In this document: positions 3,407 to 29,173 of the stretch, piece by piece | Layout of the letters: every line of letters starts with the position of its first letter | Position numbering within the stretch: the first letter of the stretch is position 1 | Assembly (NCBI RefSeq): GCF_044324875.1 | Contig: NZ_CP172185.1 | Source of the DNA: Escherichia coli | GTDB lineage: Bacteria; Pseudomonadota; Gammaproteobacteria; Enterobacterales; Enterobacteriaceae | DNA: 64,000 nt | Strand: one strand, 5' to 3' | Notes under the pieces: model-generated | What the model was told of the DNA's origin: nothing | What the model saw: the letters and a program-made list of their open reading frames with translations, nothing else | Database searches by the model: none | Position numbers and translations under genes: made by a program

Positions 3407-3730
3407 TTAATTTCCAGAACCACGCGACATTGTAGAATCGCTTCCTGAGGTCTCTTCCGTCTCCAAGCCGGTAAAAAAACGCATTACAATCATGCCTGCC
3501 TTGAAAATATCCAGCTTCGTCATCTGCGCTGCAGACGAGCGCGGGATCCCGGCCAGAAGCGGGATATATTTCAGCGCCACCTGACTGTCCATTTTCATAC
3601 CACCATCAGGCGAAACAGAGAAAGGGAACCCCAGCGCCTCAATCTCGTCATACGTAGGCTCACGTATTTCCAACACATGCAGTGTTTCTTTGTGGGCGAT
3701 GATCGGTTTTTTAAGTACAAGCTCAATCAC
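3407..3730 (-). CDS. Putative tail assembly chaperone
   Basis: 107-aa ORF between tail tube and tape measure genes; position-based. Confidence 0.35.
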   Translation of the reverse strand: MIELVLKKPIIAHKETLHVLEIREPTYDEIEALGFPFSVSPDGGMKMDSQVALKYIPLLAGIPRSSAAQMTKLDIFKAGMIVMRFFTGLETEETSGSDSTMSRGSGN

Positions 3731-18553: not shown

Positions 18554-19549
18554 TCAGGCCAGTACGCCAATTGCCAGCGCACGATCGATAAAACGAAATA
18601 TCAGCTCCAGCTGAGAGCCATACTTCTCTTCAAATGCCACGGTATCCGCATGCAGCTCGTCGTGATGCTTTCTGCACAAAGGCAACACAAAGAGGTCATG
18701 CGCTTTTGTACCCATTCCACCCTGACCGTGGCCTATCAGATGGTGGGGATCATCAGCAGGCTTTCCACAACATGCACACGGCTGTGTCTTAACCCAGCGC
18801 GTGTACTTTTCATTAACCCAGCGGCGGCTTTTTGGGCGTAACATAAAAGACTCCGGCGACTCCGGATCCACTTTCAGCGCCAGCACCTTTTTCGCTTTAT
18901 CCAGGATGATGCTGGTGGCAGGAACCGAAGGCACAAGGTCACTTTCCCGGGTGACAGACGGCACAACAGGTTTCGGTAATCTCAGCGCCTTACGGGCTGC
19001 GCTTTCAGGTAAGGCATCCGCCAGGTCATTACGAATCAGCCACCAGCACAGTTCCGGCATTGTCACGGCATGGTTATCATCAGAATCGAGATCCCGACGG
19101 ACTACAGACAACACCCAACGGGCACAGTTATCCGTTGCCATTGATTCCAGCCGCTCCGTGAACTGATCACGTAACTGATTATCGCAGTGCCAGCACAGAC
19201 GGATTGCACCCGGCGCGTGTCGCATTGTGGTCATGTTCTCGCTGTGCCAGTCGGAATGAGGCCACTGGCAGCCTTTTTCACGAAGTAACCAGCTTTCAAG
19301 ACATTCCAACCCACCAGCACGACGAATCACTGCCTCATTACGGAACACGGCCCGAACGGCAGGATCATCCGCCAGCGGTTGTGATGCCGCCGGAACGGCA
19401 CCACTGGCGAAAGATGAATAACGTTCCGGCTCAGGCTCCAGCAGGACACGCCCCTGCATAAACAGGGGCATCAGCTCTGAACCTGGCCTGAACAATACGA
19501 TCCCCATACGCGGGGCAATTTCAGGGGTCAGTAGCGCTCTCACGGTCAC
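18554..19549 (-). CDS. DUF968-family prophage protein
   Basis: 331-aa ORF with C-terminal Cys/His cluster CACCGKP...HHLIGHGQGGMG typical of this prophage family. Confidence 0.6.
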   Translation of the reverse strand: MTVRALLTPEIAPRMGIVLFRPGSELMPLFMQGRVLLEPEPERYSSFASGAVPAASQPLADDPAVRAVFRNEAVIRRAGGLECLESWLLREKGCQWPHSDWHSENMTTMRHAPGAIRLCWHCDNQLRDQFTERLESMATDNCARWVLSVVRRDLDSDDNHAVTMPELCWWLIRNDLADALPESAARKALRLPKPVVPSVTRESDLVPSVPATSIILDKAKKVLALKVDPESPESFMLRPKSRRWVNEKYTRWVKTQPCACCGKPADDPHHLIGHGQGGMGTKAHDLFVLPLCRKHHDELHADTVAFEEKYGSQLELIFRFIDRALAIGVLA

Positions 19550-19550
19550 C

Positions 19551-20381
19551 TCAATGAACGGTATCGAGCAGCTTTAACAGCTCAGGGAACCGGGATTCGA
19601 AGAAATGCGGCTGCGTCTCGCGCGGATTTGCGGGACTGGTGATGTTCTTGCCGAACATGCAGCCTTTCGCCGTCAGCGACCAGAATTTTTTGATGTTGTT
19701 AATCGCAGTGCGGCTGTATCGTTCACGTTGTTCAACGATCCCCAGCTTCGCCATCTGGTGATATGCCTGATTAGCTGTCAGGCGGATACCATACTGCTTC
19801 AGCAGTGCACTCAGTGACAGCGTGGGGCGGCTTGAGCCATCAGGCGCGTCAGCAGGAGCATCAATGGCATAGCGCGGTGCCAGATTCGGTAAGCCAACAG
19901 CCTCCTGGAGTTTCTGACAGGCACCAAGCACTGAAGAGTTAGACAGGTTTAATTCCCGGCGCATAAAGTCCAGCAGAATCACACCAGCCTGCATCTTGTC
20001 AGCAGCCTGTCCGGATAATTTTTCCGGTGCGCTGGTTACCATGTCGAAAGTACGGATCACCTTCAGATGGAATGACGGGCTTATCCACATTGCATAGGCA
20101 TACACCAGTTCTTTGCAGACATACGTCCCCTGGTTATTTCCGCCACGAATAACGTTAACTGGCTCTATATTGACCGAGTTGCAAATCTGCAACTCGCTTA
20201 TTAAACGTTCAGTTTGCTCATTGCGGAGCCAGAATGCAGGCTTATGCTTATCCAGAGAACCGGCAGCCCTGTGCAGATCGTTCAGGCTGTAACGACCATA
20301 AGCATCACGACGAACTTCAATACCATCAATGACCATCAGATTATTCATACTTCGTTTCTCCTCTTGATCAGGCGGCTGCAC
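19551..20381 (-). CDS. KilA-N domain protein
   Basis: N-terminal VIDGIEVRRDAYGRYSLNDLHRAAG motif of the KilA-N DNA-binding domain. Confidence 0.7.
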   Translation of the reverse strand: MQPPDQEEKRSMNNLMVIDGIEVRRDAYGRYSLNDLHRAAGSLDKHKPAFWLRNEQTERLISELQICNSVNIEPVNVIRGGNNQGTYVCKELVYAYAMWISPSFHLKVIRTFDMVTSAPEKLSGQAADKMQAGVILLDFMRRELNLSNSSVLGACQKLQEAVGLPNLAPRYAIDAPADAPDGSSRPTLSLSALLKQYGIRLTANQAYHQMAKLGIVEQRERYSRTAINNIKKFWSLTAKGCMFGKNITSPANPRETQPHFFESRFPELLKLLDTVH

Positions 20382-20757
20382 CCGCCGTTTTCTCGTACTT
20401 ACTGATGGTGATCTCGACCTTCCCTTTCGGGATAACCGGTCCCCACTCCACCAGCATTCTTTTCACCTGTCTGTCGTCTTCCCACACACCCGCGTGGGTC
20501 AACGCGTCAAACAGCGCCTTGTTATAGTTGTCCAGATCGCGGATCCGGTTATCCGGAGGAAACAACACGATCTCCACTGAAGCAGGTGCCGACGTTGGTT
20601 TTGGCAGACGACGTAACTGCTCAACTATTGCTGCGCACGCCGCGCTCTGAAATTTTCGCCCCGCCGCGCTTATCAGGCTCTTACCAGCAAATGCCCCTTT
20701 GTTGGGGTGTCGCCAGTACGTGTTCACGCTGGGCGGGAAAGGCAGGATCAGCTTCAT
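20368..20757 (-). CDS. rusA: Holliday junction resolvase RusA
   Basis: 129-aa ORF with RusA-like sequence in the ninR-equivalent region. Confidence 0.85.
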   Translation of the reverse strand: MKLILPFPPSVNTYWRHPNKGAFAGKSLISAAGRKFQSAACAAIVEQLRRLPKPTSAPASVEIVLFPPDNRIRDLDNYNKALFDALTHAGVWEDDRQVKRMLVEWGPVIPKGKVEITISKYEKTAGAAA

Positions 20758-21080
20758 ACTTTCAGGCCTCTCTCATGTAACCAGTGGGTTGCACGCAGCC
20801 TGGCGTTTTCCTCACCGGCAAGCAGTGAGCGGATAATCCCGACCGCCTCGCTGTCGTCGTCCTTCACCGCGGTATGAAGAGTGATACCCCGGGCCACGCC
20901 ACGCTTTATCGTGATGACGCCTTTTTTCTCCAGTGCGCGAAGATGTTCCACCGCTGCATTCACTGAACGGTATCCCAGCATGGTTGCCACCTCCTGATTG
21001 GTTGGCGGGAAGCCACGTTCTTTCTGGTAAGAAATCAGCATATCCAGCACCTGCTGCTGGCATTGAGTTAACGTCGTCAT
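20754..21080 (-). CDS. LexA DNA-binding-domain-like protein lacking peptidase domain
   Basis: 108-aa ORF aligning by eye to the LexA N-terminal winged helix (QQQVLDML...GFPPT..E.A..LGYRS.NAA.EHL.AL.KKGVI). Confidence 0.6.
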   Translation of the reverse strand: MTTLTQCQQQVLDMLISYQKERGFPPTNQEVATMLGYRSVNAAVEHLRALEKKGVITIKRGVARGITLHTAVKDDDSEAVGIIRSLLAGEENARLRATHWLHERGLKV

Positions 21081-21729
21081 GCCGCCATCTCCCTGACCAG
21101 TTTTTCCGCCTGCTGGCGAACCTGCGCCAGAAACGCCTCACCACATGCCTCAAGTTCATCGCGCCCGATGTAGCTGATTGCCGGTCCCTTCCAGGTCTTG
21201 TCGAAAACAGCAATAGCACCAGCGAAGAAAGCGCCTGTCGGCACCTGCTTCTCGTCCTTCGGTATAAACCAGGCAGGCAGTTCAAAACCAATACGCCCGC
21301 GAATAAAAGCAATATGATCTGCATCTTCCGGCCACCACACTTCGCTGGTGGCCGCTTTGATCAGGAAAACATAGCGCCCGCCCTTATCACGCATGGCACT
21401 GGCATGTTTCATGATGTAACGCATGCCGGTGATGTATTGCCCCTCATGCTGACTGGCGCGGCTGTATGGGGATTACCAAAGGCAGCACCTTTAAGCTCCG
21501 CAAGACGTTCTGACCAGTCATGCGCCAGCGCGTTATCTTCCGCCGTGTAATACGCGGCACATTTGGCGTTATCACCGTCAGTAAACAGATCCAGAACAAA
21601 CGGGCCAAACAGTGTGTTAATTCCCCAGAAAATGTTGTCCGGCGTGCGCCACTGATCGCCCACTTCCTTCAGTTCATGGGCTGGTTTGTTCCGCAGTTCC
21701 ACCAGTGCCTGACAATATTTATTACTCAT
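21077..21729 (-). pseudogene. Phage DNA N6-adenine methyltransferase (Dam family) split by a 1-nt frameshift
   Basis: ORFs 21409-21762 and 21077-21424 together match the Dam family (WRTPD...NAKC..YYT...FGNP); frame breaks in a G4 run at 21469-21472 exactly at the NPPY motif. Confidence 0.7.
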
Positions 21730-22223
21730 TAAGCCCCCACGTAATTCCCTGACAGATACCACTCTTCACCCGATGCTGCGCGCTTGCTGCTTTTCTGTAA
21801 GCACTGCTCACGACGCGCCAGAAAATTGTTTCGTTCTGGCTGGGAGTGGCTTTCACGGAATGCCGCCATCCACACCGTTGCAGCACGACGGTATAAGCCC
21901 CTGGACTCCAGTTCTTCAGCCTGGCGGGTCAGGCACAAAATCACCCGGGGATCGTTAGTGCCGACATAGAAATTGCGCACAGGTCTAGTTTCACGAACTG
22001 GTTGTGGTTCCGGCTCCTGCGCTCTCTCAGTCAGGCGCGGGAAATGTCTGCGTGTATCTCCTTCACAACGGTGAGCCACACGCCCACTCTGACGTAACTT
22101 GCTTGCTGACTGCAGAACGCGCTGTCGTGAGTAACCTGCAAAAGCATCCGCAATGTCTCCGGAAGTACACCCCGGATGGGCTTCAATGAATTTCTGAACT
22201 TCATTCAAAAGACTCATAATCAC
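21729..22223 (-). CDS. Phage early protein, putative regulator
   Basis: 164-aa ORF whose stop overlaps the Dam start (TAATG). Confidence 0.4.
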   Translation of the reverse strand: MIMSLLNEVQKFIEAHPGCTSGDIADAFAGYSRQRVLQSASKLRQSGRVAHRCEGDTRRHFPRLTERAQEPEPQPVRETRPVRNFYVGTNDPRVILCLTRQAEELESRGLYRRAATVWMAAFRESHSQPERNNFLARREQCLQKSSKRAASGEEWYLSGNYVGA

Positions 22224-23161
22224 CCCCTGAATCCTGCCGGGATCTGGCTGTAGTCCACGTTGTCGTAACTGGCTTTGAAGTACGGGTCTTCGCGTTTTTC
22301 TGTGTGCGTGCTGACGGACGGCGATAAGCGCAGGGAAAGCTCATCCCATTTTTCCCGCAACTTCGACGGGCTGAGCACGTTACGGCACCAGAACGGATCG
22401 CGGCTGACGCGGCTGTACATCTCGCAGATTTGTTTGTGAGTACGACCATCCTGCACACACATCAGGCGAATTTCGTTTGCCCAGGCTGTCCAGTTAGGTT
22501 CTTTGGGACGAACCACCTCGCCGTCACATTCGGCGGCCTGCTCGTACAGGGCGATGATTTTTTTCCAGAGCCACTGTGCGCAGGTCAAATCATCCTGCGT
22601 TCCCCACTGGCGCTTTTTAGGGCTGAATACAACCGCATCAGGATGGCGAGTTAAAAAATCCTGTTCATCCATCTGCGTGTCCGGTTGCGAAGCGTCCGGA
22701 CGAGAAGGTTTTTTATCTGATGGATCATGTTTTGATTTTACTGACGGATCCCCGCCAGATTCTGACGGGTGAAAACCCGCTTTTTTGCCAGATTTCGACG
22801 CATCAAATTTTGACGGGTCAGATTTTGATGCGTCAGATTTTGACGGGTCAGAATCTGACAGTTGAGAAAATGCCGCTGCCTGAAGCTTCGCAACGTTAAG
22901 CTGATAAACATTCGACGCATTGCGGTTACCCTGGCGACGCGCCTTACGCGTTAACCAGCCTTCTGCTTCCAGCCGTGCGATAGCCGTTCTGACGGTACTC
23001 ATCCCCGCGCCAATCTGGCGGGCAATGGTTTCAATTGATGGCCAGCACACACCTTCGTCATTACTGAAATCAGCCAGGCGGGCCATAATTGCCACGCTGG
23101 ATAATTTCATGCCTGACGCAGCGCAACCATCCCATACATAGCCGGTTAATTTAGTGCTCAT
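22220..23161 (-). CDS. Replication initiation protein, O-like with N-terminal HTH
   Basis: 313-aa ORF with HTH near the N-terminus and an internal iteron-encoded repeat, in the O position. Confidence 0.65.
   Translation of the reverse strand: MSTKLTGYVWDGCAASGMKLSSVAIMARLADFSNDEGVCWPSIETIARQIGAGMSTVRTAIARLEAEGWLTRKARRQGNRNASNVYQLNVAKLQAAAFSQLSDSDPSKSDASKSDPSKFDASKSGKKAGFHPSESGGDPSVKSKHDPSDKKPSRPDASQPDTQMDEQDFLTRHPDAVVFSPKKRQWGTQDDLTCAQWLWKKIIALYEQAAECDGEVVRPKEPNWTAWANEIRLMCVQDGRTHKQICEMYSRVSRDPFWCRNVLSPSKLREKWDELSLRLSPSVSTHTEKREDPYFKASYDNVDYSQIPAGFRG
22762..22860. repeat. Iteron array (putative phage origin) inside the O-like gene
   Basis: About six direct repeats of a 12-15 bp unit related to GATTTTGACGGG. 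Confidence 0.5.
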
Positions 23162-23509
23162 GACCGACCTCTATTTCCCTGAATTTACGACGAAACTGTT
23201 CGAGCGGACTGAAGCATTCATGCTCATAGCCTTCGCGGAGGTAGATAACCCGTTGTGTTTCCGGCTCCCAACGAATGACTCTGACGGGCACTCCGTAGTG
23301 ATCTTTGAACCAGCGGTTAACTTGTCGCAAAGGACTGTCTCCTTCTGCCGGTTGAAATCACCCACAGCCCACTCTGCAAAGCTGTGGGTTACAATTTCCC
23401 TGTCACCTAGTACATTCACTGCATAGCAATATTCCACCTTCGCTTTTCCACCCGGTACAGGAAGCGCAATCAGTTGCGAGCGACGGTAGTGTGTTGTTAA
23501 ACTGTTCAT
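23151..23509 (-). pseudogene. Small early gene upstream of O, apparently frameshifted (or two overlapping short ORFs)
   Basis: Protein-like N-terminal half in one frame and protein-like C-terminal half (...[23 protein letters not shown]...) in the -1 frame ending at the O start; junction near 23325-23350. Confidence 0.35.
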
Positions 23510-24075
23510 GCGTTAGTTTCTCCACAACCAGAAGCAATCGACGCCACGACGCCCGGAGCTGCACACTCGCGGGCGTCATTACTTTCTGAAATGCAAAAAA
23601 TTTTGTAGACAAGTGCTGCATGCTCCTGCAGCTTCGAAATTGAGAGATACAGCTCGTCGTTAATTGCTGTCTTCTCATGCGGTTCCACTACACCGTCTTC
23701 GATTGCTGAACGAATCTGTTTTGAATAACTGCCGATCTGTTCAATGACTTCCAGCAGACGCTGGTTAATATCGGCGTTGTCCACATCCTCGACGTCAGGA
23801 AGAGACACAAAGACGCCATTTGCAGACTGCGCCACAGCATCAGCAATGAAATGAGTGCCACCAGCACGCTGTAAAACCATTGCCCATCCCAGCGGGAAAA
23901 TCTGATCGCCATCTGCACGAAGGCGGTTGAATAAAGCGTTTTCTGTTACATCGAGCCAGTCAGCCGCTTCAGCGTAACCACCCGGCAACGCCGCGATAGT
24001 TTTTCTGACAGCTTTCACGTACCACTCAGGCTGTTTTTCTATTTTCCAGTGATGCTTACCCACGATTAGCCTCAT
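23506..24075 (-). CDS. Putative CII-like early regulatory protein
   Basis: 189-aa ORF in the cII-equivalent position directly downstream of cro; position-based. Confidence 0.35.
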
Positions 24076-24106
24076 CGTTCTGTGGTTAAAAATTGAAAGT
24101 GTTCTG

Positions 24107-24310
24107 CTAATCTTTCGGATAGATATCCGGTCTTAAGTCAGATTTCGTAATTGCACCTGACGTGCATTGCTCAAGTTTTTTAGCCAGCACAAAACTGGCT
24201 TTTTTATAGCCATTGAAAACCAGCCGTAAGTAGCCAGGTGTTGAGCCAACTTTTCCGGCCAACTCGCCCTGCTGTTCTTTGGTTAAAGAGTCCCAATACG
24301 CTTTCATACA
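24107..24310 (-). CDS. Cro-like repressor (YdaS/Cro family HTH)
   Basis: 67-aa product from Met 24310 with C-terminal DLRPDIYP-like motif; the listed longer ORF reads through the operator region. Confidence 0.7.
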   Translation of the reverse strand, partial: CMKAYWDSLTKEQQGELAGKVGSTPGYLRLVFNGYKKASFVLAKKLEQCTSGAITKSDLRPDIYPKD

Positions 24311-24397
24311 ATATGTACCTCCGGTATACATATTACATGATTGAAATGAACCTTCAAGATACTTGTACCTTAACGGTACAAGGGTTTTAATTTCGTT
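24311..24397. promoter_or_regulatory. Immunity switch: divergent promoters with palindromic operators
   Basis: Palindromes ATGTACC-tcc-GGTATACAT (24314-24332) and CTTGTACC-ttaac-GGTACAAG (24362-24382); no Shine-Dalgarno before the cI ATG. Confidence 0.6.
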
Positions 24398-25072
24398 ATG
24401 AAAACAATCCATGACATCCGGCGGTCTAACGCCAGAAAACTGAGAGATGGTGTTGGCGGGAATTCTTCCTTTGCCACTATGATTGATCGCGAGCCAACCC
24501 AGACCAGCAGGTTTATGGGAGATGGTGCTACTAAAAATATCGGTGACAGCATGGCACGACACATCGAAAAATGTTTCGACCTGCCTGTCGGATGGCTCGA
24601 TCAAGAACACCAGACAACGAACATCACAAAAAAACCTGATGTTTCAATCACTAATAAACAAATCACATTAGTCCCTGTCATATCATGGGTACAGGCCGGA
24701 GCATGGAAAGAAGTTGGATATTCTGAGGTTGATTTGAGCACAGCAGAAACGTATCCCTGCCCTGTACCCTGTGGGGAAATGACTTATATCTTGCGGGTGA
24801 TAGGTGATTCAATGATTGATGAGTACCGCCCGGGAGACATGATTTTTGTCGATCCTGAAGTACCTGCCTGCCACGGTGACGACGTTATTGCATTGATGCA
24901 CGATACAGGTGAAACCACCTTCAAAAGGTTGATAGAAGATGGGACACAGCGTTATCTCAAAGCGTTAAACCCAAACTGGCCTGAGCCTTACATTAAGATC
25001 AACGGTAATTGCTCTATAATTGGAACTGTGATTTTCTCAGGAAAACCAAGAAGATACAAAATCAAAGCCTAA
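24398..25072 (+). CDS. CI-like repressor with HTH and LexA-like S24 peptidase domain
   Basis: 224-aa ORF; N-terminal HTH and C-terminal GDSM...K autocleavage domain. Confidence 0.85.
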   Translation: MKTIHDIRRSNARKLRDGVGGNSSFATMIDREPTQTSRFMGDGATKNIGDSMARHIEKCFDLPVGWLDQEHQTTNITKKPDVSITNKQITLVPVISWVQAGAWKEVGYSEVDLSTAETYPCPVPCGEMTYILRVIGDSMIDEYRPGDMIFVDPEVPACHGDDVIALMHDTGETTFKRLIEDGTQRYLKALNPNWPEPYIKINGNCSIIGTVIFSGKPRRYKIKA

Positions 25073-25084
25073 TCAATGTTTATG

Positions 25085-25108
25085 AACCTGCTTCGGCAGG
25101 TTTTTTTA
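25085..25108 (+). terminator. Intrinsic terminator after the repressor gene
   Basis: CCTGC-ttcg-GCAGG hairpin followed by seven T. Confidence 0.6.
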
Positions 25109-25111
25109 TAC

Positions 25112-25140
25112 TTGACAATGTACCTTTGGGATACATAATG
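25112..25140 (+). promoter_or_regulatory. pL-like promoter with overlapping operator
   Basis: TTGACA, 16-17 bp spacer containing TGTACC...GGATACA operator-like half-sites, then CATAAT. Confidence 0.55.
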
Positions 25141-25226
25141 TGCCCAAGAGAAACAACAAACAGGCAGGACGCCCACGAAGTAGCCGCCTGGAGCATATGA
25201 AGTCTAGGATGATTCGTTAGCAACAA

Positions 25227-25261
25227 AAAAGCGCCCTACAGGACGCTTAGCTCTTTAACAA
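25227..25261 (+). promoter_or_regulatory. Hairpin plus rrn-type boxA-like element in pL leader
   Basis: GC-rich hairpin 25231-25246 then GCTCTTTAACAA at 25250-25261, matching the rrn boxA core. Confidence 0.4.
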
Positions 25262-25306
25262 TCAGGTCCCCATCAACAAGTAACTGATAACTTGAGGAGG
25301 TGTGAA

Positions 25307-25513
25307 ATGCACAAAACAGAACCAAAAATCGTCGCGCCCGGATACACAAATGAGGAAATTTACGAGTGGATGGCAAAGAAGCTGGCAGCTATAAACCAGC
25401 TTCGTGAAGTGCTGTCTTATCGACAGGAAACAATAGACTCCTTAAAAAAACTGGATCAGGAAATCACGGTTTTATCACAGGATGTTACTTTAGATATTGT
25501 GCAGACAAATTAG
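25307..25513 (+). CDS. Hypothetical 68-aa protein, first gene after pL
   Basis: Strong GAGGAGG ribosome-binding site 6 nt before ATG; no arginine-rich motif. Confidence 0.5.
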   Translation: MHKTEPKIVAPGYTNEEIYEWMAKKLAAINQLREVLSYRQETIDSLKKLDQEITVLSQDVTLDIVQTN

Positions 25514-25919
25514 GATCCCATTCATTTTCGTCAAAATCATCAAAGTGATGAATTTGTGATCTCCAGTCTCGATAATCTAAAAATTTCTGGGCGGTTACGC
25601 TTATTTTATCAAGCGTGAGTTCATCCTGAATTGAAAGAAGAAGTTCATCAAATTTCATCTCATTAATCTGTTTTGGCATCCAGTGATGCTTCATCAGAAT
25701 AAGGTGAACCAGAGCTTTTTTCCCATTCAACTGATTATAGGGAGTGCCGAATTTCTTCCGGTGCTCATGTAAGACAAGGTCCAGAAGAGTAAGTAATGTT
25801 GCCCTTGATTCAACTTTGCTTATTTCGACTGATGACACTACCCCACTGATTTCAATGCCCCGATACTTTCCAACATTTTCACAGTGGGATTTGTACAGCG
25901 TATAGATATTACCGGACAT
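25485..25919 (-). CDS. Hypothetical 144-aa protein antisense to the pL operon
   Basis: AT-rich ORF with AAGGA ribosome-binding site; 3' end overlaps 25307-25513 convergently by 29 nt. Confidence 0.5.
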   Translation of the reverse strand: MSGNIYTLYKSHCENVGKYRGIEISGVVSSVEISKVESRATLLTLLDLVLHEHRKKFGTPYNQLNGKKALVHLILMKHHWMPKQINEMKFDELLLSIQDELTLDKISVTAQKFLDYRDWRSQIHHFDDFDENEWDPNLSAQYLK

Positions 25920-26070
25920 TTCTTTTCCTTTTGCGTTGTTGGGGATAACCAGATTAACCGAATCCTTGTTGTTGGGGAATAACCAGGTCCACCTCGCCTG
26001 ATGTGGCTAAAAGCAGGCACATAACAGCTAAGTATTTTCAACCAGAGAGAATCCTTAGCGTTGTGGTGAA

Positions 26071-26387
26071 TGCGGCTCAGCGCACGCGGGTTAAGGTTGA
26101 GGCTGACAGTCGACCTTCTGTGGATACCCACCCGCCTGGTGTGCAACCTTCGCCAGGCACCGGGAGGCACCCGGCACCACAACTTTATGCTGCGTGTAGT
26201 CTTGGCGGTACCAGCTTTTACCCTTGCTTCCGGCTGGTACCGTCCTTTTTACAAAACAGAGAAGAGCATTACCGGACGACGGGCTCATAACTCAATCCAT
26301 CCGGGCGGCTGCCACCGCAGGTGTTCTTCTCTGTTTTGTGGAGAAACTAATCGGCTTTGCAGGGTCGATATGATGAGGAGCAGCAAA
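26071..26387. other. GC-rich structured noncoding segment (candidate cis-acting RNA or ncRNA)
   Basis: Nested inverted repeats including a 12-bp stem GGCGGTACCAGC/GCTGGTACCGTC (26211-26251); short ORFs in several frames without ribosome-binding sites. Confidence 0.3.
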
Positions 26388-26750
26388 ATGGCTAGCGAAC
26401 GCAGTACTGATGTGCAAGCATTTATCGGGGAGCTGGACGGCGGCGTATTTGAAACCAAAATCGGCGCAGTTCTCAGTGAAGTCGCTTCCGGTGTGATGAA
26501 CACGAAAACCAAAGGTAAGGTCTCACTCAACCTGGAAATCGAACCATTTGATGAAAACCGTGTGAAAATCAAACACAAACTCTCATATGTTCGCCCGACT
26601 AACCGCGGGAAAATTTCCGAAGAAGACACCACCGAAACGCCGATGTATGTCAATCGCGGTGGTCGCCTGACTATTCTGCAGGAAGACCAGGGACAATTAC
26701 TGACTCTTGCCGGTGAACCTGACGGAAAACTCCGCGCAGCAGGTCATTAA
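26388..26750 (+). CDS. Hypothetical early-left protein (CPS-53 YfdP-like)
   Basis: 120-aa product from Met 26388 preceded by GAGGAG; the upstream in-frame extension from 26070 looks noncoding. Confidence 0.5.
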   Translation: MASERSTDVQAFIGELDGGVFETKIGAVLSEVASGVMNTKTKGKVSLNLEIEPFDENRVKIKHKLSYVRPTNRGKISEEDTTETPMYVNRGGRLTILQEDQGQLLTLAGEPDGKLRAAGH

Positions 26751-26815
26751 TATCGTTCTTAATTAACCGATTATTTATCTCATCACTGAATATCTTAATA
26801 TAGTGAGGACTTATT

Positions 26816-27640
26816 ATGTCTCAAAACTTAGACGCAACCGCATTTAATCAAATCCATGCCCTTATTTCTGCTCAGGGTGTTAATGAAATTATCAGTAAGA
26901 TTGGTGCCGATGCTGTGGCATTGCCTGAGAATTTCCGCATTCATGATCTGGAAAAATTTAATTTAAATCGCTTCCGTTTCCGTGGTGCGCTTTCCACTGC
27001 CAGCATCGATGACTTTACCCGTTATTCTAAAGATCTTGCAGATGAAGGCACCCGCTGCTTTATCGATGCTGATAATATGCGTGCCGTCAGTGTGCTTAAC
27101 CTGGGTACTATTGATGAACCAGGTCACGCAGATAACACCGCCACTCTCAAACTGAAAAAGACAGCACCGTTCTCTGCTCTGTTGTCTGTTAATGGCGAGC
27201 GTAACTCCCAGAAATCACTGGCAGAATGGATTGAAAACTGGGCCGACTACCTTGTGGGCTTTGATGCTAATGGTGACGCCATTCAGGCAACCAAAGCGGC
27301 GGCGGCTATCCGTAAAATCACAATTGAAGCGAACCAGACCGCTGATTTTGAAGATAATGACTTCAGCGGCAAACGCTCCCTGATGGAGTCTGTCGAAGCG
27401 AAGACCAAAGACATTATGCCAGTGGCATTTGAATTTAAATGCGTTCCGTTTGAAGGCCTGAAAGAACGTCCATTTAAATTACGCCTCAGCATTATCACTG
27501 GCGATCGTCCTGTACTGGTTCTGCGCATTATTCAGCTGGAAGCGGTGCAGGAAGAAATGGCTAACGAATTTCGTGATCTGCTTGTTGAGAAATTCAAAGA
27601 CAGCAAAGTAGAAACCTTTATTGGTACTTTCACCGCCTGA
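26816..27640 (+). CDS. DUF2303-type protein (YfdQ-like)
   Basis: 274-aa ORF recalled as matching E. coli CPS-53 YfdQ. Confidence 0.6.
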
Positions 27641-27767
27641 TTTCATTACTGCAAATGCCCCTGCGGGGGAATTTATGGAAACGTAATTAACTCAATAATC
27701 GCCGGATGGTGAGGACTTCCTTTTACCAGAATTCAGCGCGGTGCAGCGCATATACGTGGAGAACAAA

Positions 27768-28304
27768 ATGTCATTTATTAAAACTTTTTCCGGGAAGCAT
27801 TTTTATTATGACAAGATAAATCAAGACGACATCGTTATTAACGATATCGCGGTTTCCCTTTCAAATATCTGTCGCTTTGCAGGACATCTTTCACATTTCT
27901 ACAGCGTCGCCCAACATGCGGTGCTTTGCAGCCAACTGGTGCCGCAGGAATTTGCTTTTGAAGCGTTAATGCATGATGCAACAGAAGCGTATTGCCAGGA
28001 CATCCCGGCGCCACTGAAACGCCTTCTTCCTGACTATAAACGGATGGAAGAAAAAATAGACGCCGTAATCCGTGAGAAATACGGGTTACCCCCAGTTATG
28101 AGTACACCCGTGAAATATGCCGATCTCATCATGCTGGCAACTGAACGCCGCGATCTCGGGCTTGATGATGGCTCTTTCTGGCCAGTACTGGAAGGTATCC
28201 CGGCAACAGAGATGTTCAAAGTTATTCCACTGGCACCGGGCCATGCCTACGGGATGTTTATGGAACGCTTCAACGAGTTATCGGAATTACGCAAATGTGC
28301 ATAA
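27768..28304 (+). CDS. HD-domain phosphohydrolase (YfdR-like 5'-deoxynucleotidase)
   Basis: 178-aa product with H..HD metal-binding signature (HAVL...MHDATEAY). Confidence 0.65.
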   Translation: MSFIKTFSGKHFYYDKINQDDIVINDIAVSLSNICRFAGHLSHFYSVAQHAVLCSQLVPQEFAFEALMHDATEAYCQDIPAPLKRLLPDYKRMEEKIDAVIREKYGLPPVMSTPVKYADLIMLATERRDLGLDDGSFWPVLEGIPATEMFKVIPLAPGHAYGMFMERFNELSELRKCA

Positions 28305-29173
28305 CTCATGTAGTTAGTTTTTCTGGCGGGAGAACATCCGCATATCTTGTTCACCTGATGGAAGAACAAAGAAAGGCTGGCAATAACGTCTGCTACATCT
28401 TTATGGATACCGGTTGCGAACATCCGCTGACATACCGCTTTATCCGGGAGGTTGTGAAGTTCTGGGACATACCACTAACTGTGTTACAGGTCGATATAAA
28501 TCCTGAGCTTGGGCAGCCAAATGGTTATACAGAATGGGAGCCAACGGATATTCAGACACGAATGCCGGTGCTTAAACCGTTTATGGACATGGTTAAAAAG
28601 TACGGCACGCCATACATCGGCGGCGCGTTCTGTACTGACAGGCTAAAACTCATCCCTTTCACGAAATACTGCGATAACCATTTCGGGCGAGGTAATTACA
28701 TCACATGGCTGGGTATTCGTGCAGACGAACCCCGTAGGCTGAAACCGAAATCGGGCGTCCGGTATCTTGCCGAGCTGTCAGATTTTGATAAGTCGGATGT
28801 TATCCGGTGGTGGCGAAAACAACCTTTTGATTTGCAAATCCCGGAGCATCTCGGGAACTGTGTTTTCTGCATCAAAAAGTCAACGCAAAAGCTGGGGCTT
28901 GCATGTAAAGACGAACCAGGTCTGATGCGAGTTTTTAATGAGCTGGTTACAGGCAAACACGTCAGGGATGGTCATCGCAGAACAGGTAAAGACATTATGT
29001 ACCGTGGTCACCTGACGCTTGACGGAATTGCCAGAATGTCTGCCAACAGCGACTACAGAAATTTGTATCAGGCGATGGTACAGGCCAGGCGATTCGATAC
29101 CGGCTCGTGTTCAGAGTCATGTGAAATCTGGGGTGATCAATTGGAATTGGAATTCGAAGAGGTAGGGGTATGA
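28295..29173 (+). CDS. PAPS reductase-like PP-loop protein
   Basis: 292-aa ORF with N-terminal SFSGGRTS PP-loop ATP-pyrophosphatase motif. Confidence 0.7.
   Translation: MCITHVVSFSGGRTSAYLVHLMEEQRKAGNNVCYIFMDTGCEHPLTYRFIREVVKFWDIPLTVLQVDINPELGQPNGYTEWEPTDIQTRMPVLKPFMDMVKKYGTPYIGGAFCTDRLKLIPFTKYCDNHFGRGNYITWLGIRADEPRRLKPKSGVRYLAELSDFDKSDVIRWWRKQPFDLQIPEHLGNCVFCIKKSTQKLGLACKDEPGLMRVFNELVTGKHVRDGHRRTGKDIMYRGHLTLDGIARMSANSDYRNLYQAMVQARRFDTGSCSESCEIWGDQLELEFEEVGV

Follow-up and report, generated by a model that had tools for sequence, protein, structure and literature searches.

The window analysed here is a 64,000-nt stretch of Escherichia coli DNA (contig NZ_CP172185.1). It carries a prophage of the e14-like lambdoid type, and the genes described below belong to the early-right operon of this prophage. 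All of them lie on the minus strand. The first, ymfL (23506-24075), is a regulatory gene in the cII position, and its product matches NCBIfam NF041471 (E = 2.7e-50). Directly downstream is an ORF of 112 aa (23171-23509) whose ATG (23507-23509) overlaps the ymfL TGA as ATGA (23506-23509) and which ends at a TAG (23171-23173). Nested in the 3' half of this ORF, in the -1 frame, is a gene of 59 aa (23151-23330) that encodes a DUF4222 protein; it starts at a TTG (23328-23330) and stops at a TAA (23151-23153). The O-like replication initiator gene (22220-23161; 313 aa, helix-turn-helix) follows, with its ATG at 23159-23161. The TAA lies 8 nt inside the O-like gene, the first codons of which encode, in another frame, the C-terminus of the DUF4222 protein. 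The initiator ATG is in frame with the 112-aa ORF and is separated from its stop by a 9-nt spacer, AGGTCGGTC (23162-23170). The GAGG Shine-Dalgarno sequence of the O gene is formed by this spacer and the final G of the TAG stop. Matches to the region, comprising ymfL, a DUF4222 gene and a helix-turn-helix gene, occur in 2707 of 5426 E. coli genomes. Scans of positions 19000-29000 for Rfam families and tRNAs found no RNA element.

An initial annotation had described the ORF at 23171-23509 as protein-like in its N-terminal half and Ser/Thr-rich in its C-terminal half, and we re-derived both features exactly. The product matches phrog_1170 over 112/112 positions (E = 2e-69) and differs by 3 amino acid substitutions from the copy in the K-12 lineage (YmfM, b1148), which has the same length. 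The gene order ymfL-ymfM-replication gene is common to this locus and the K-12 e14 prophage, with ymfM in the same place between ymfL and an O-like gene; the latter is intact here, whereas it is truncated in K-12 e14. By sequence match and synteny, the ORF is the orthologue of E. coli K-12 e14 ymfM, published as sfiC. Database entries with a truncated YmfM correspond to contig ends, insertion/deletion junctions and sporadic frameshifts.

The two halves of YmfM have different properties. The N-terminal domain (23330-23509, approximately codons 1-60) is the conserved part and is predicted to be folded: AlphaFold places three strands and a helix (residues 42-65) there with pLDDT of 63-79. In this half, pN/pS is 0.30-0.52 in the ymfM frame, compared to 0.8-1.75 in control frames, and polymorphisms among 80 near-identical loci are 14 synonymous and 7 non-synonymous. 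It also matches a stand-alone family, phrog_20047. The N-terminal half is encoded without the tail in other lineages and, judged from these sequences, the tail is dispensable for the domain as such. The C-terminal tail (23171-23329) consists of approximately 52 codons in the +1 frame of DUF4222; it is open but its residues are not conserved, and AlphaFold predicts disorder (pLDDT of approximately 40). A structure search with the YmfM model gave no match.

The frame nested in the 3' half of ymfM had been proposed to read as a plausible protein that ends at the start codon of the O-like gene. Our analysis supports this proposal: the frame ends at 23151, overlapping that ATG, and gives a full-length match to Pfam PF13973 (DUF4222; positions 3-52 of the 53 in the profile, 67.3 bits where the cut-off is 27, E = 8.6e-19). 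The protein is identical to the PGAP-annotated RefSeq entry WP_001250269.1 and is identical in the K-12 lineage. NCBIfam holds no model for either YmfM or the DUF4222 protein. The predicted initiation signal is AAGGAG-N8-TTG, with the Shine-Dalgarno sequence (23339-23344) lying within the ymfM coding sequence. We compared this locus with a sample of 29 DUF4222 loci from approximately 10 enterobacterial genera, chosen regardless of ymfM; 28 were usable, and one was cut at a contig end. Among homologues, the start aligned with this TTG is ATG in 23, GTG in 5 and TTG in 1, and a motif of the GGAG or GGAGG type is found at a similar distance from the start in most of the 28 loci. Stops upstream in the DUF4222 frame are as near as -6 in some loci. 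In the E. coli sequence, a TGA in this frame (23358-23360) lies 27 nt upstream of the TTG and hence rules out a long N-terminal extension. Protein length is 59, 61 or 70 aa, varying with the type of initiator because the C-terminus is encoded inside the initiator gene. AlphaFold predicts a small beta-barrel (pLDDT 83.8), for which a structure search returned weak, generic SH3/KOW/Tudor-like matches (best E = 0.056). Across the overlap with ymfM, the DUF4222 frame is under purifying selection (pN/pS 0.22, with pS of 0.65), and polymorphisms in the 80 near-identical loci are 11 synonymous and 1 non-synonymous. Based on its start and ribosome-binding site, we consider DUF4222 to be an independent gene.

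Two reading frames that each look like one half of a protein could reflect a single ancestral gene split by a 1-nt deletion, whether a sequencing error or a recent mutation, and the initial annotation had placed such a deletion near 23325-23350. The halves do resemble complementary pieces, and in-frame fusions of the YmfM N-terminal half to DUF4222 exist in databases, as four protein clusters (P0031, P0050, P0057 and P0062) of 1-14 member sequences each. However, these fusions are rare and join at differing points, as sporadic indels would, whereas clusters with the two-frame arrangement have from hundreds to over a thousand members. An alignment against homologous prophage loci, which had been suggested as a check, revealed no single ancestral frame: the two-frame layout is universal, being found in 28/28 usable loci from other genera, in three Klebsiella phages and in 44/45 near-identical haplotypes. 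Moreover, DUF4222 has its own upstream TGA and a conserved Shine-Dalgarno sequence and start, and in distant homologues of the region the two genes are separate short ORFs, each conserved and each with a start of its own, an arrangement that had been named in advance as incompatible with a deletion. We regard a deletion as extremely unlikely. The other suggestion made at the outset, two short overlapping genes, is right in that there are two genes but not in that both are short, since the upstream gene in this clade continues for approximately 52 codons through DUF4222. We conclude that the locus is intact, which removes a false alarm and makes resequencing unnecessary.

A different way to join the two halves would be programmed -1 ribosomal frameshifting that fuses the YmfM N-terminal half to DUF4222. 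DUF4222 is in the -1 frame relative to ymfM at every locus, which is the geometry required. However, a slippery heptamer of the form X_XXY_YYZ is absent from the permissive window in 28/29 loci, including this one, and in some loci the DUF4222 frame opens just 6-18 nt before the start. Frameshifting would also leave unexplained why the zero frame is open to its end, and DUF4222 has a start of its own. Hence, we consider frameshifting very unlikely.

We asked how the tail of ymfM compares with what DUF4222 alone would impose. The ymfM frame runs without an internal stop across DUF4222 to the same stop site in each of the 28 usable loci, and the ymfM start is conserved as GGAG-N10-ATG(A). The remaining sense frame over DUF4222 has between 1 and 10 stops per locus in these loci. 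As a null model, we resampled synonymous codons in 17 lineages that differ from one another by at least 10% of nucleotides. We expected 34.5 stops in the ymfM frame over the overlap and observed none. Under this null, the probability of an open ymfM frame is 0.03-0.12 per lineage; the joint probability, 1e-21, treats lineages as independent, an assumption that near-saturated synonymous sites (pS 0.65 in the overlap) justify only approximately. Other frames are near the null, with 64 stops observed against 55 expected, 44 against 53, and 4 against 12. The antisense +2 frame departs from the null (106 against 56), as the mirror image of the codon bias in DUF4222 described below.

We rejected the sequence or codon bias of DUF4222 as a trivial cause of the open +1 frame: the null gives approximately 2 stops per locus, codons ending in G or A do occur at harmless positions, and stand-alone DUF4222 genes do carry stops in their +1 frame. 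An antisense ORF on the plus strand (23154-23426) is open in 22/28 loci. We also rejected this ORF as meaningful, since its probability of being open under the null is approximately 0.5 and it needs no explanation.

Codon choice in DUF4222 shows where stops are avoided. Val before Ile is encoded by GTT or GTC only (29/29 and 28/28), whereas GTG and GTA do occur at positions where they create no stop. CTG is never used for Leu before Asn, and Arg after Leu31 is encoded by CGN in 29/29 loci. The ymfM stop itself is formed from the rare codon ATA (21/21) or from TTA (6/6). Of the 27 loci that have a downstream gene, 26 place the ATG of the replication gene in frame with ymfM, at a distance of exactly 9 nt from this stop; the distance is 18 nt in the remaining locus (L012). 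The 9-nt junction is kept across at least four unrelated types of initiator.

Although stops are avoided, amino acid constraint within the overlap falls on the DUF4222 frame only. For the ymfM frame, pN/pS is 1.67, similar to the 1.61 of a control frame, and polymorphisms in the tail are 1 synonymous and 11 non-synonymous in the 80 near-identical loci. The tail has, however, a higher content of polar residues than a null that requires the frame to be open. In the sequences compared, three features are thus the only signs of selection on the tail: avoidance of stops, a fixed stop site and polar composition. The lack of constraint, together with the predicted disorder, the occurrence of the N-terminal half on its own elsewhere and the omission of ymfM by PGAP, is consistent with an account in which only a YmfM N-terminal protein of approximately 60 aa and DUF4222 are real, and the long tail is an accidental read-on that is unselected and serves no purpose when translated, if it is translated at all. 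We consider this account very unlikely. It predicts neither an absence of stops where 34.5 are expected, in contrast to control frames that (antisense +2 excepted) agree with the null, nor the context-specific avoidance of stop-creating codons alongside retention of stop-building ATA or TTA codons in 27/27 loci. It likewise leaves the fixed distance between the stop and the initiator ATG, the polar shift and the +1-frame stops of stand-alone DUF4222 genes without explanation.

Distant relatives indicate how the overlap arose. In nine distant loci (L035-L043), DUF4222 is a gene on its own, and its TGA overlaps the initiator ATG as ATGA; in 6 of the 9, the +1 frame has internal stops. Just upstream is a gene of approximately 60 aa that is homologous to the YmfM N-terminal half (with blastp E values as low as 1e-10). 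Within the e14 clade, the stop of DUF4222 is shifted 8-44 nt into the initiator gene. Since the distant relatives have two adjacent, separate genes, the ymfM tail is a later read-on, an instance of overprinting, that has been kept open. The ancestral layout, which these relatives retain, is a YmfM-N-like gene followed by DUF4222, with ATGA overlaps, directly upstream of the replication initiator. The e14 clade then saw the loss of the stop of the upstream gene, so that ymfM now covers all of DUF4222 in its +1 frame and terminates in frame with the initiator, 9 nt short of its ATG. This locus offers a clean, datable natural case of gene extension by overprinting, in which the ancestral two-gene state survives in relatives.

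We conclude that ymfM and DUF4222 are, with a probability of roughly 85%, two genuine prophage genes that overlap out of frame, with nothing broken. We propose that cleavage of the repressor would lead to transcription of an operon comprising a cro-like gene, ymfL, ymfM/DUF4222 and O. Ribosomes leaving ymfL would restart at the ATGA and translate YmfM across the ribosome-binding site of DUF4222, terminating on the Shine-Dalgarno sequence of the O gene. Separate ribosomes would initiate at the TTG to produce the DUF4222 protein. The SfiC phenotype, an SOS-inducible block of the FtsZ ring, would come from one or both of these small proteins.

Given two genuine genes, the tail may be kept open for one of two reasons: to couple O to the genes upstream, or because YmfM needs a disordered tail. 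With no amino acid constraint and a prediction of disorder, the tail may not matter as a peptide. We entertain, tentatively and as somewhat less than an even chance, that the tail is open for the sake of translation itself, such that ribosomes reach the O Shine-Dalgarno sequence and couple O to ymfL-ymfM; passing ribosomes might, in addition, modulate initiation at DUF4222. The ATGA at the 5' end and the in-frame stop-N9-ATG at the 3' end fit such coupling, the latter being conserved irrespective of initiator type. In distant relatives it is DUF4222 that is coupled to the initiator, through its ATGA; here its stop lies within the initiator gene, and ymfM could have taken over the role. However, the argument for coupling is purely inferential, and the O gene has its own Shine-Dalgarno sequence. 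The polar shift, which goes beyond what an open frame requires, suggests that the peptide is at least tolerated or shaped, and conservation of the stop could be explained solely by the fusion of YmfM to O that would follow from its loss.

Out-of-frame nesting of genes has precedents in phages. In phage lambda, Rz1 is the textbook case of an out-of-frame gene nested in a larger gene, Rz; the two share strand and operon, Rz1 has a ribosome-binding site of its own, and both proteins are under sequence constraint and cooperate in lysis. The likeness to Rz/Rz1 lies in a small gene with its own ribosome-binding site embedded in another frame of a larger gene, and is one of arrangement only: here the embedded DUF4222 gene is the older and more constrained of the two, and the overlapping part of the enclosing ymfM is an unconstrained tail. 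Gene E of phiX174 (within D) and L of MS2 are overprinted genes that encode whole new proteins from their own starts. They resemble ymfM in that a new frame lies over an older gene and in that the product of the younger frame is disordered, biased in composition and under weak constraint; in ymfM, by contrast, overprinting took the form of a C-terminal extension of an upstream gene via loss of its stop. The DUF4222 family itself (PF13973; PHROG 1343) consists of uncharacterised phage and prophage proteins. The gene studied here encodes a full-length member and, like distant members, lies directly upstream of an initiator; it differs from them in being wholly overlapped by another conserved ORF, whereas the gene of distant members has no such overlap and meets the initiator at a clean ATGA junction. 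With respect to function, lambda Kil, Rac KilR and Qin DicB are described in a preprint on ymfM as small prophage inhibitors of division (bioRxiv 10.1101/2020.11.19.390815). Like them, YmfM and the DUF4222 protein are small early-operon prophage proteins, and a Z-ring block on induction has been reported for the K-12 locus. We found no similarity of sequence or fold between Kil, KilR or DicB and DUF4222 or YmfM, the PDB matches of DUF4222 being weak (E > 0.05).

Existing annotations capture one side of the nested pair at a time. None of the annotated records that we inspected calls both genes; each has just one of them, except for a record that calls an antisense ORF instead. DUF4222 is called in E. 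coli annotations by PGAP and in the record of one Klebsiella phage; ymfM is called in PhiR49_1, SfIV and KpF5, and is not called in current RefSeq E. coli annotations (PGAP). The K-12 reference annotation presumably lists ymfM only. Our literature search found no paper in which ymfM is connected to DUF4222 or to any gene that overlaps it, and found no ribosome-profiling or proteomic data for either frame. The nested pair ymfM/DUF4222 thus exposes a blind spot in annotation.

The overlap also bears on the assignment of sfiC. The identity of sfiC reportedly stayed open for 35 years before it was assigned to ymfM in 2020-21 by Ansari et al. (preprint, and J Bacteriol 2021). According to the preprint, cells filament and lose the Z-ring when the K-12 ymfM ORF is induced from a pBAD24 clone, and the SfiC phenotype is independent of SulA, SlmA and MinC (bioRxiv 10.1101/2020.11.19.390815). 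In that account, K-12 ymfM is a single-product gene; here, its 3' half holds a complete and better-conserved DUF4222 gene. Taking the 3' end of the clone from the phrase "the open reading frame" in the preprint, the published clone should include the Shine-Dalgarno sequence, the start and the whole domain of DUF4222, and the deletion, as far as the preprint text shows, removes both genes. The SfiC assignment comes from one preprint/paper with a construct that, as described there, does not separate the two frames. Since DUF4222 is nested inside ymfM, experiments that credit ymfM cannot yet tell which protein blocks division. It is possible, although we think it improbable, that the SfiC division block comes wholly or partly from the nested 59-aa DUF4222 protein. 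If so, the FtsZ-ring inhibitors would gain a new class in DUF4222, a widespread uncharacterised family that always precedes lambdoid replication initiators.

A 112-aa ORF (23171-23509, minus strand) overlaps a 59-aa ORF lying in the -1 frame relative to it (23151-23330, minus strand); this description, made in the initial annotation, was reproduced here. The product of the shorter ORF contains the DUF4222 domain in full (PF13973; score 67.3 bits, cut-off 27) and is identical to RefSeq WP_001250269.1. The longer ORF is ymfM: a phrog_1170 match spans it end to end, and three substitutions (L34P, A94V and V101A) separate it from the K-12-lineage copy. The ymfM ATG overlaps the TGA of ymfL (ATGA, 23506-23509); 9 nt separate the ymfM TAG (23171-23173) from the in-frame ATG (23159-23161) of an O-like replication initiator gene, and DUF4222 ends 8 nt into that gene. 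DUF4222 starts with a TTG (23328-23330) 8 nt after a Shine-Dalgarno sequence, AAGGAG (23339-23344), and its frame has a TGA upstream (23358-23360).

Both ORFs sit in the early-right operon of a lambdoid prophage, with a LexA-family cI-like repressor gene (24398-25072, plus strand), a cro-like gene between this and ymfL (23506-24075, minus strand; NCBIfam NF041471), and the O-like initiator gene (22220-23161, minus strand), which encodes a 313-aa helix-turn-helix protein. By megablast, 2707 of the 5426 complete E. coli genomes searched carry the segment 23100-23600, with the annotations 'ymfL', 'DUF4222 domain-containing protein' and 'helix-turn-helix domain-containing protein' over the matched regions; the K-12 derivative among them has the segment in the prophage e14. 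The initiator gene is intact in the window and is followed by PerC-like, LexA-like, RusA and KilA-N genes, whereas that of e14 has been cut short and lies against a terminase fragment (3440-3616 of the K-12 locus L001); in this operon, the window prophage has therefore decayed far less than e14. We also found seven terminator-like hairpins in 22900-24500 (1.7 expected), four of which cluster, on both strands, at 24182-24382, within and just upstream of the cro-like gene, towards the repressor gene.

The initial annotation proposed either a 1-nt deletion splitting one gene or two overlapping genes, to be distinguished by alignment to homologous prophage regions. We gathered comparison loci through DUF4222 alone, avoiding ascertainment via ymfM, and obtained 29 loci from ~10 enterobacterial genera, one genome per species, 28 of them usable. 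All 28 keep both frames. The ymfM frame (+1 of DUF4222) is open from 152-239 nt upstream to one stop site (+160, +163 or +166), with 1-10 stops per locus in the other sense frame. A length of 108-114 aa and an MNSLT-like start, set in a conserved GGAG-N10-ATG(A) context, are shared by nearly all of these ORFs; the start is GTG in L003 and L004, and the ORFs of L009 and L015 are interrupted by a contig end. Three Klebsiella phages share the arrangement, and both ORFs are intact in 44 of 45 haplotypes among 80 near-identical IMG/VR loci. The two-frame layout across these sets contradicts a deletion. Database proteins in which the N-terminal half of YmfM is fused in frame to DUF4222 (P0031, P0050, P0057 and P0062) are rare forms with few members, joined at differing points; a protein search with YmfM returned full-length ORFs of 112-117 aa down to 44% identity. 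Programmed frameshifting is unlikely, since a slippery heptamer is absent from 28 of 29 loci and DUF4222 has its own start. Natural recombination has altered one IMG/VR locus (L055; UViG_2690316176_000004): unrelated sequence takes the place of the first ~105 nt of ymfM, from ~180 to 75 nt ahead of the DUF4222 start, so that the YmfM start and N-terminus are lost and DUF4222 remains intact.

We compared the open ymfM frame with a null in which the synonymous codons of each DUF4222 gene were resampled using codon usage from the same operons. The probability of an open frame was 0.03-0.15 per locus, with ~2 stops expected; across 17 lineages at least 10% apart in nucleotide sequence, we observed 0 stops against 34.5 expected. 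The product of these probabilities is 1e-21 if lineages are independent, an approximation supported by near-saturated synonymous sites (mean pS 0.65). Three other alternative frames were roughly as predicted (64 observed versus 55 expected, 44 versus 53, and 4 versus 12). The antisense +2 frame has a stop excess (106 versus 56; DUF4222 region of the window and L003-L030), apparently mirroring the way in which avoiding stops enriches the ymfM frame for TCA and TTA. Individual codons follow the same pattern: Val preceding Ile is only GTT or GTC (29/29 and 28/28), GTG and GTA occurring at Val positions unable to create a stop; CTG is never used for Leu preceding Asn; Arg after Leu31 is always CGN; and the codon that supplies the ymfM stop is ATA, a rare Ile codon (21/21), or TTA (6/6). 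Stand-alone DUF4222 genes of distant relatives do carry +1-frame stops, so the DUF4222 protein sequence does not force the ymfM frame open. Apart from stop avoidance, synonymous sites are unusually uniform across genera at Glu22 (GAG, 29/29), Pro23 (CCA, 26/29) and Val28 (GTT, 28/28), columns (window ~23247-23267) that match the GSQK and ALST motifs of the ymfM tail; since GAG to GAA segregates among E. coli sequences (n=24), constraint there, if any, is weak. A 90-aa antisense ORF opposite DUF4222 (23154-23426, plus strand), stop-free in the equivalent frame of 22 of 28 related loci, most likely arises from the codon usage of DUF4222 (null probability of being open ~0.5).

Selection on protein sequence differs between the frames. 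Within the overlap, pN/pS is 0.22 for DUF4222, 1.67 for ymfM and 1.61 for the control (+2) frame, and synonymous to nonsynonymous polymorphisms, counted in a near-identical locus set, are 11:1 for DUF4222 and 1:11 for ymfM. In the N-terminal half, pN/pS is 0.30-0.52 in the ymfM frame (polymorphisms 14:7) versus 0.8-1.75 in control frames. AlphaFold models agree with this picture: DUF4222 is confidently predicted as a small barrel of five strands plus a short helix (pLDDT 83.8), the YmfM N-terminal half with moderate confidence as three strands and a helix at 42-65, and YmfM residues 70-112 have a pLDDT of ~40. Relative to a null conditioned on being open, the tail is somewhat higher in Ser/Thr (0.32 versus 0.25) and lower in hydrophobic residues (0.21 versus 0.29).

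Profile searches identified 83 DUF4222 relatives. At nine loci with distant DUF4222 (30-50% identity), the gene stands alone, sharing an ATGA between its TGA and the initiator ATG, and none of the nine has a long ORF overlapping it. Immediately upstream in four of them, ending at the DUF4222 start, is a gene for a 60-66-aa homologue of the YmfM N-terminal half (blastp E 1e-10 to 6e-5 in the best cases); PHROGs holds a stand-alone YmfM-N family, phrog_20047. These separate genes indicate that two adjacent small genes are the ancestral state; in the e14 clade, as its ORFs read, the upstream gene continues for ~52 codons through DUF4222. The two can also occur apart, since Entomohabitans teleogrylli (KQ947383.1, 2001-2237) has a 78-aa YmfM-N homologue directly before an HTH_36 initiator gene, without DUF4222. 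We conclude that overprinting has produced a nested and conserved pair of genes here, which upholds and sharpens the proposal of two overlapping genes.

The initiator ATG lies exactly 9 nt past the ymfM stop, in frame, in 26 of 27 loci with a downstream gene (18 nt, still in frame, in L012), a junction that recurs with at least four unrelated types of initiator. Because the first initiator codons also encode the end of DUF4222 (window 23151-23161; +160 to +230 from the DUF4222 start in L003-L030), the length of DUF4222 (59, 61 or 70 aa) and its C-terminal tail switch with initiator type. A mosaic recombination boundary falls exactly at the initiator ATG. Upon repressor cleavage, the operon would be transcribed; ribosomes finishing ymfL would restart at the ATGA and translate YmfM through to its TAG, and separate ribosomes would begin at AAGGAG-N8-TTG to make DUF4222. 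Termination at the ymfM stop puts ribosomes on the initiator Shine-Dalgarno sequence, and loss of this stop would yield a YmfM-initiator fusion. Tentatively, the tail might be kept open for translational coupling to the initiator; another candidate reason is that a harmless disordered tail is required.

None of the records inspected calls both genes: ymfM alone is annotated in PhiR49_1, SfIV and KpF5, and DUF4222 alone in PGAP annotations of E. coli and in ST147-VIM1phi7.2; an antisense ORF is called in Klebsiella phage ST101-KPC2phi6.3. Full-text literature searches returned no paper connecting ymfM to DUF4222 or to an overlapping gene. A pBAD24 clone of the K-12 ymfM ORF makes cells filament and lose their Z rings, an effect independent of SulA, SlmA and MinC, and in a sulA background SOS filamentation is reduced when ymfM is deleted; these results led to the naming of ymfM as sfiC, the e14 division inhibitor gene (bioRxiv 10.1101/2020.11.19.390815). 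The preprint text gives the insert as 'the open reading frame' and mentions no frame-specific mutants; such an insert should carry the DUF4222 Shine-Dalgarno sequence, start and codons 1-53, the whole Pfam domain. Earlier library clones contain both genes entire. The published experiments therefore do not tell which product acts. We favour the YmfM N-domain as the division inhibitor (probability roughly 0.6), given that the tie of DUF4222 to replication initiators holds in all relatives, while only some of them have the YmfM-N gene; DUF4222 is a less probable but live candidate. The molecular identity of SfiC is thus a testable consequence of the nested pair.
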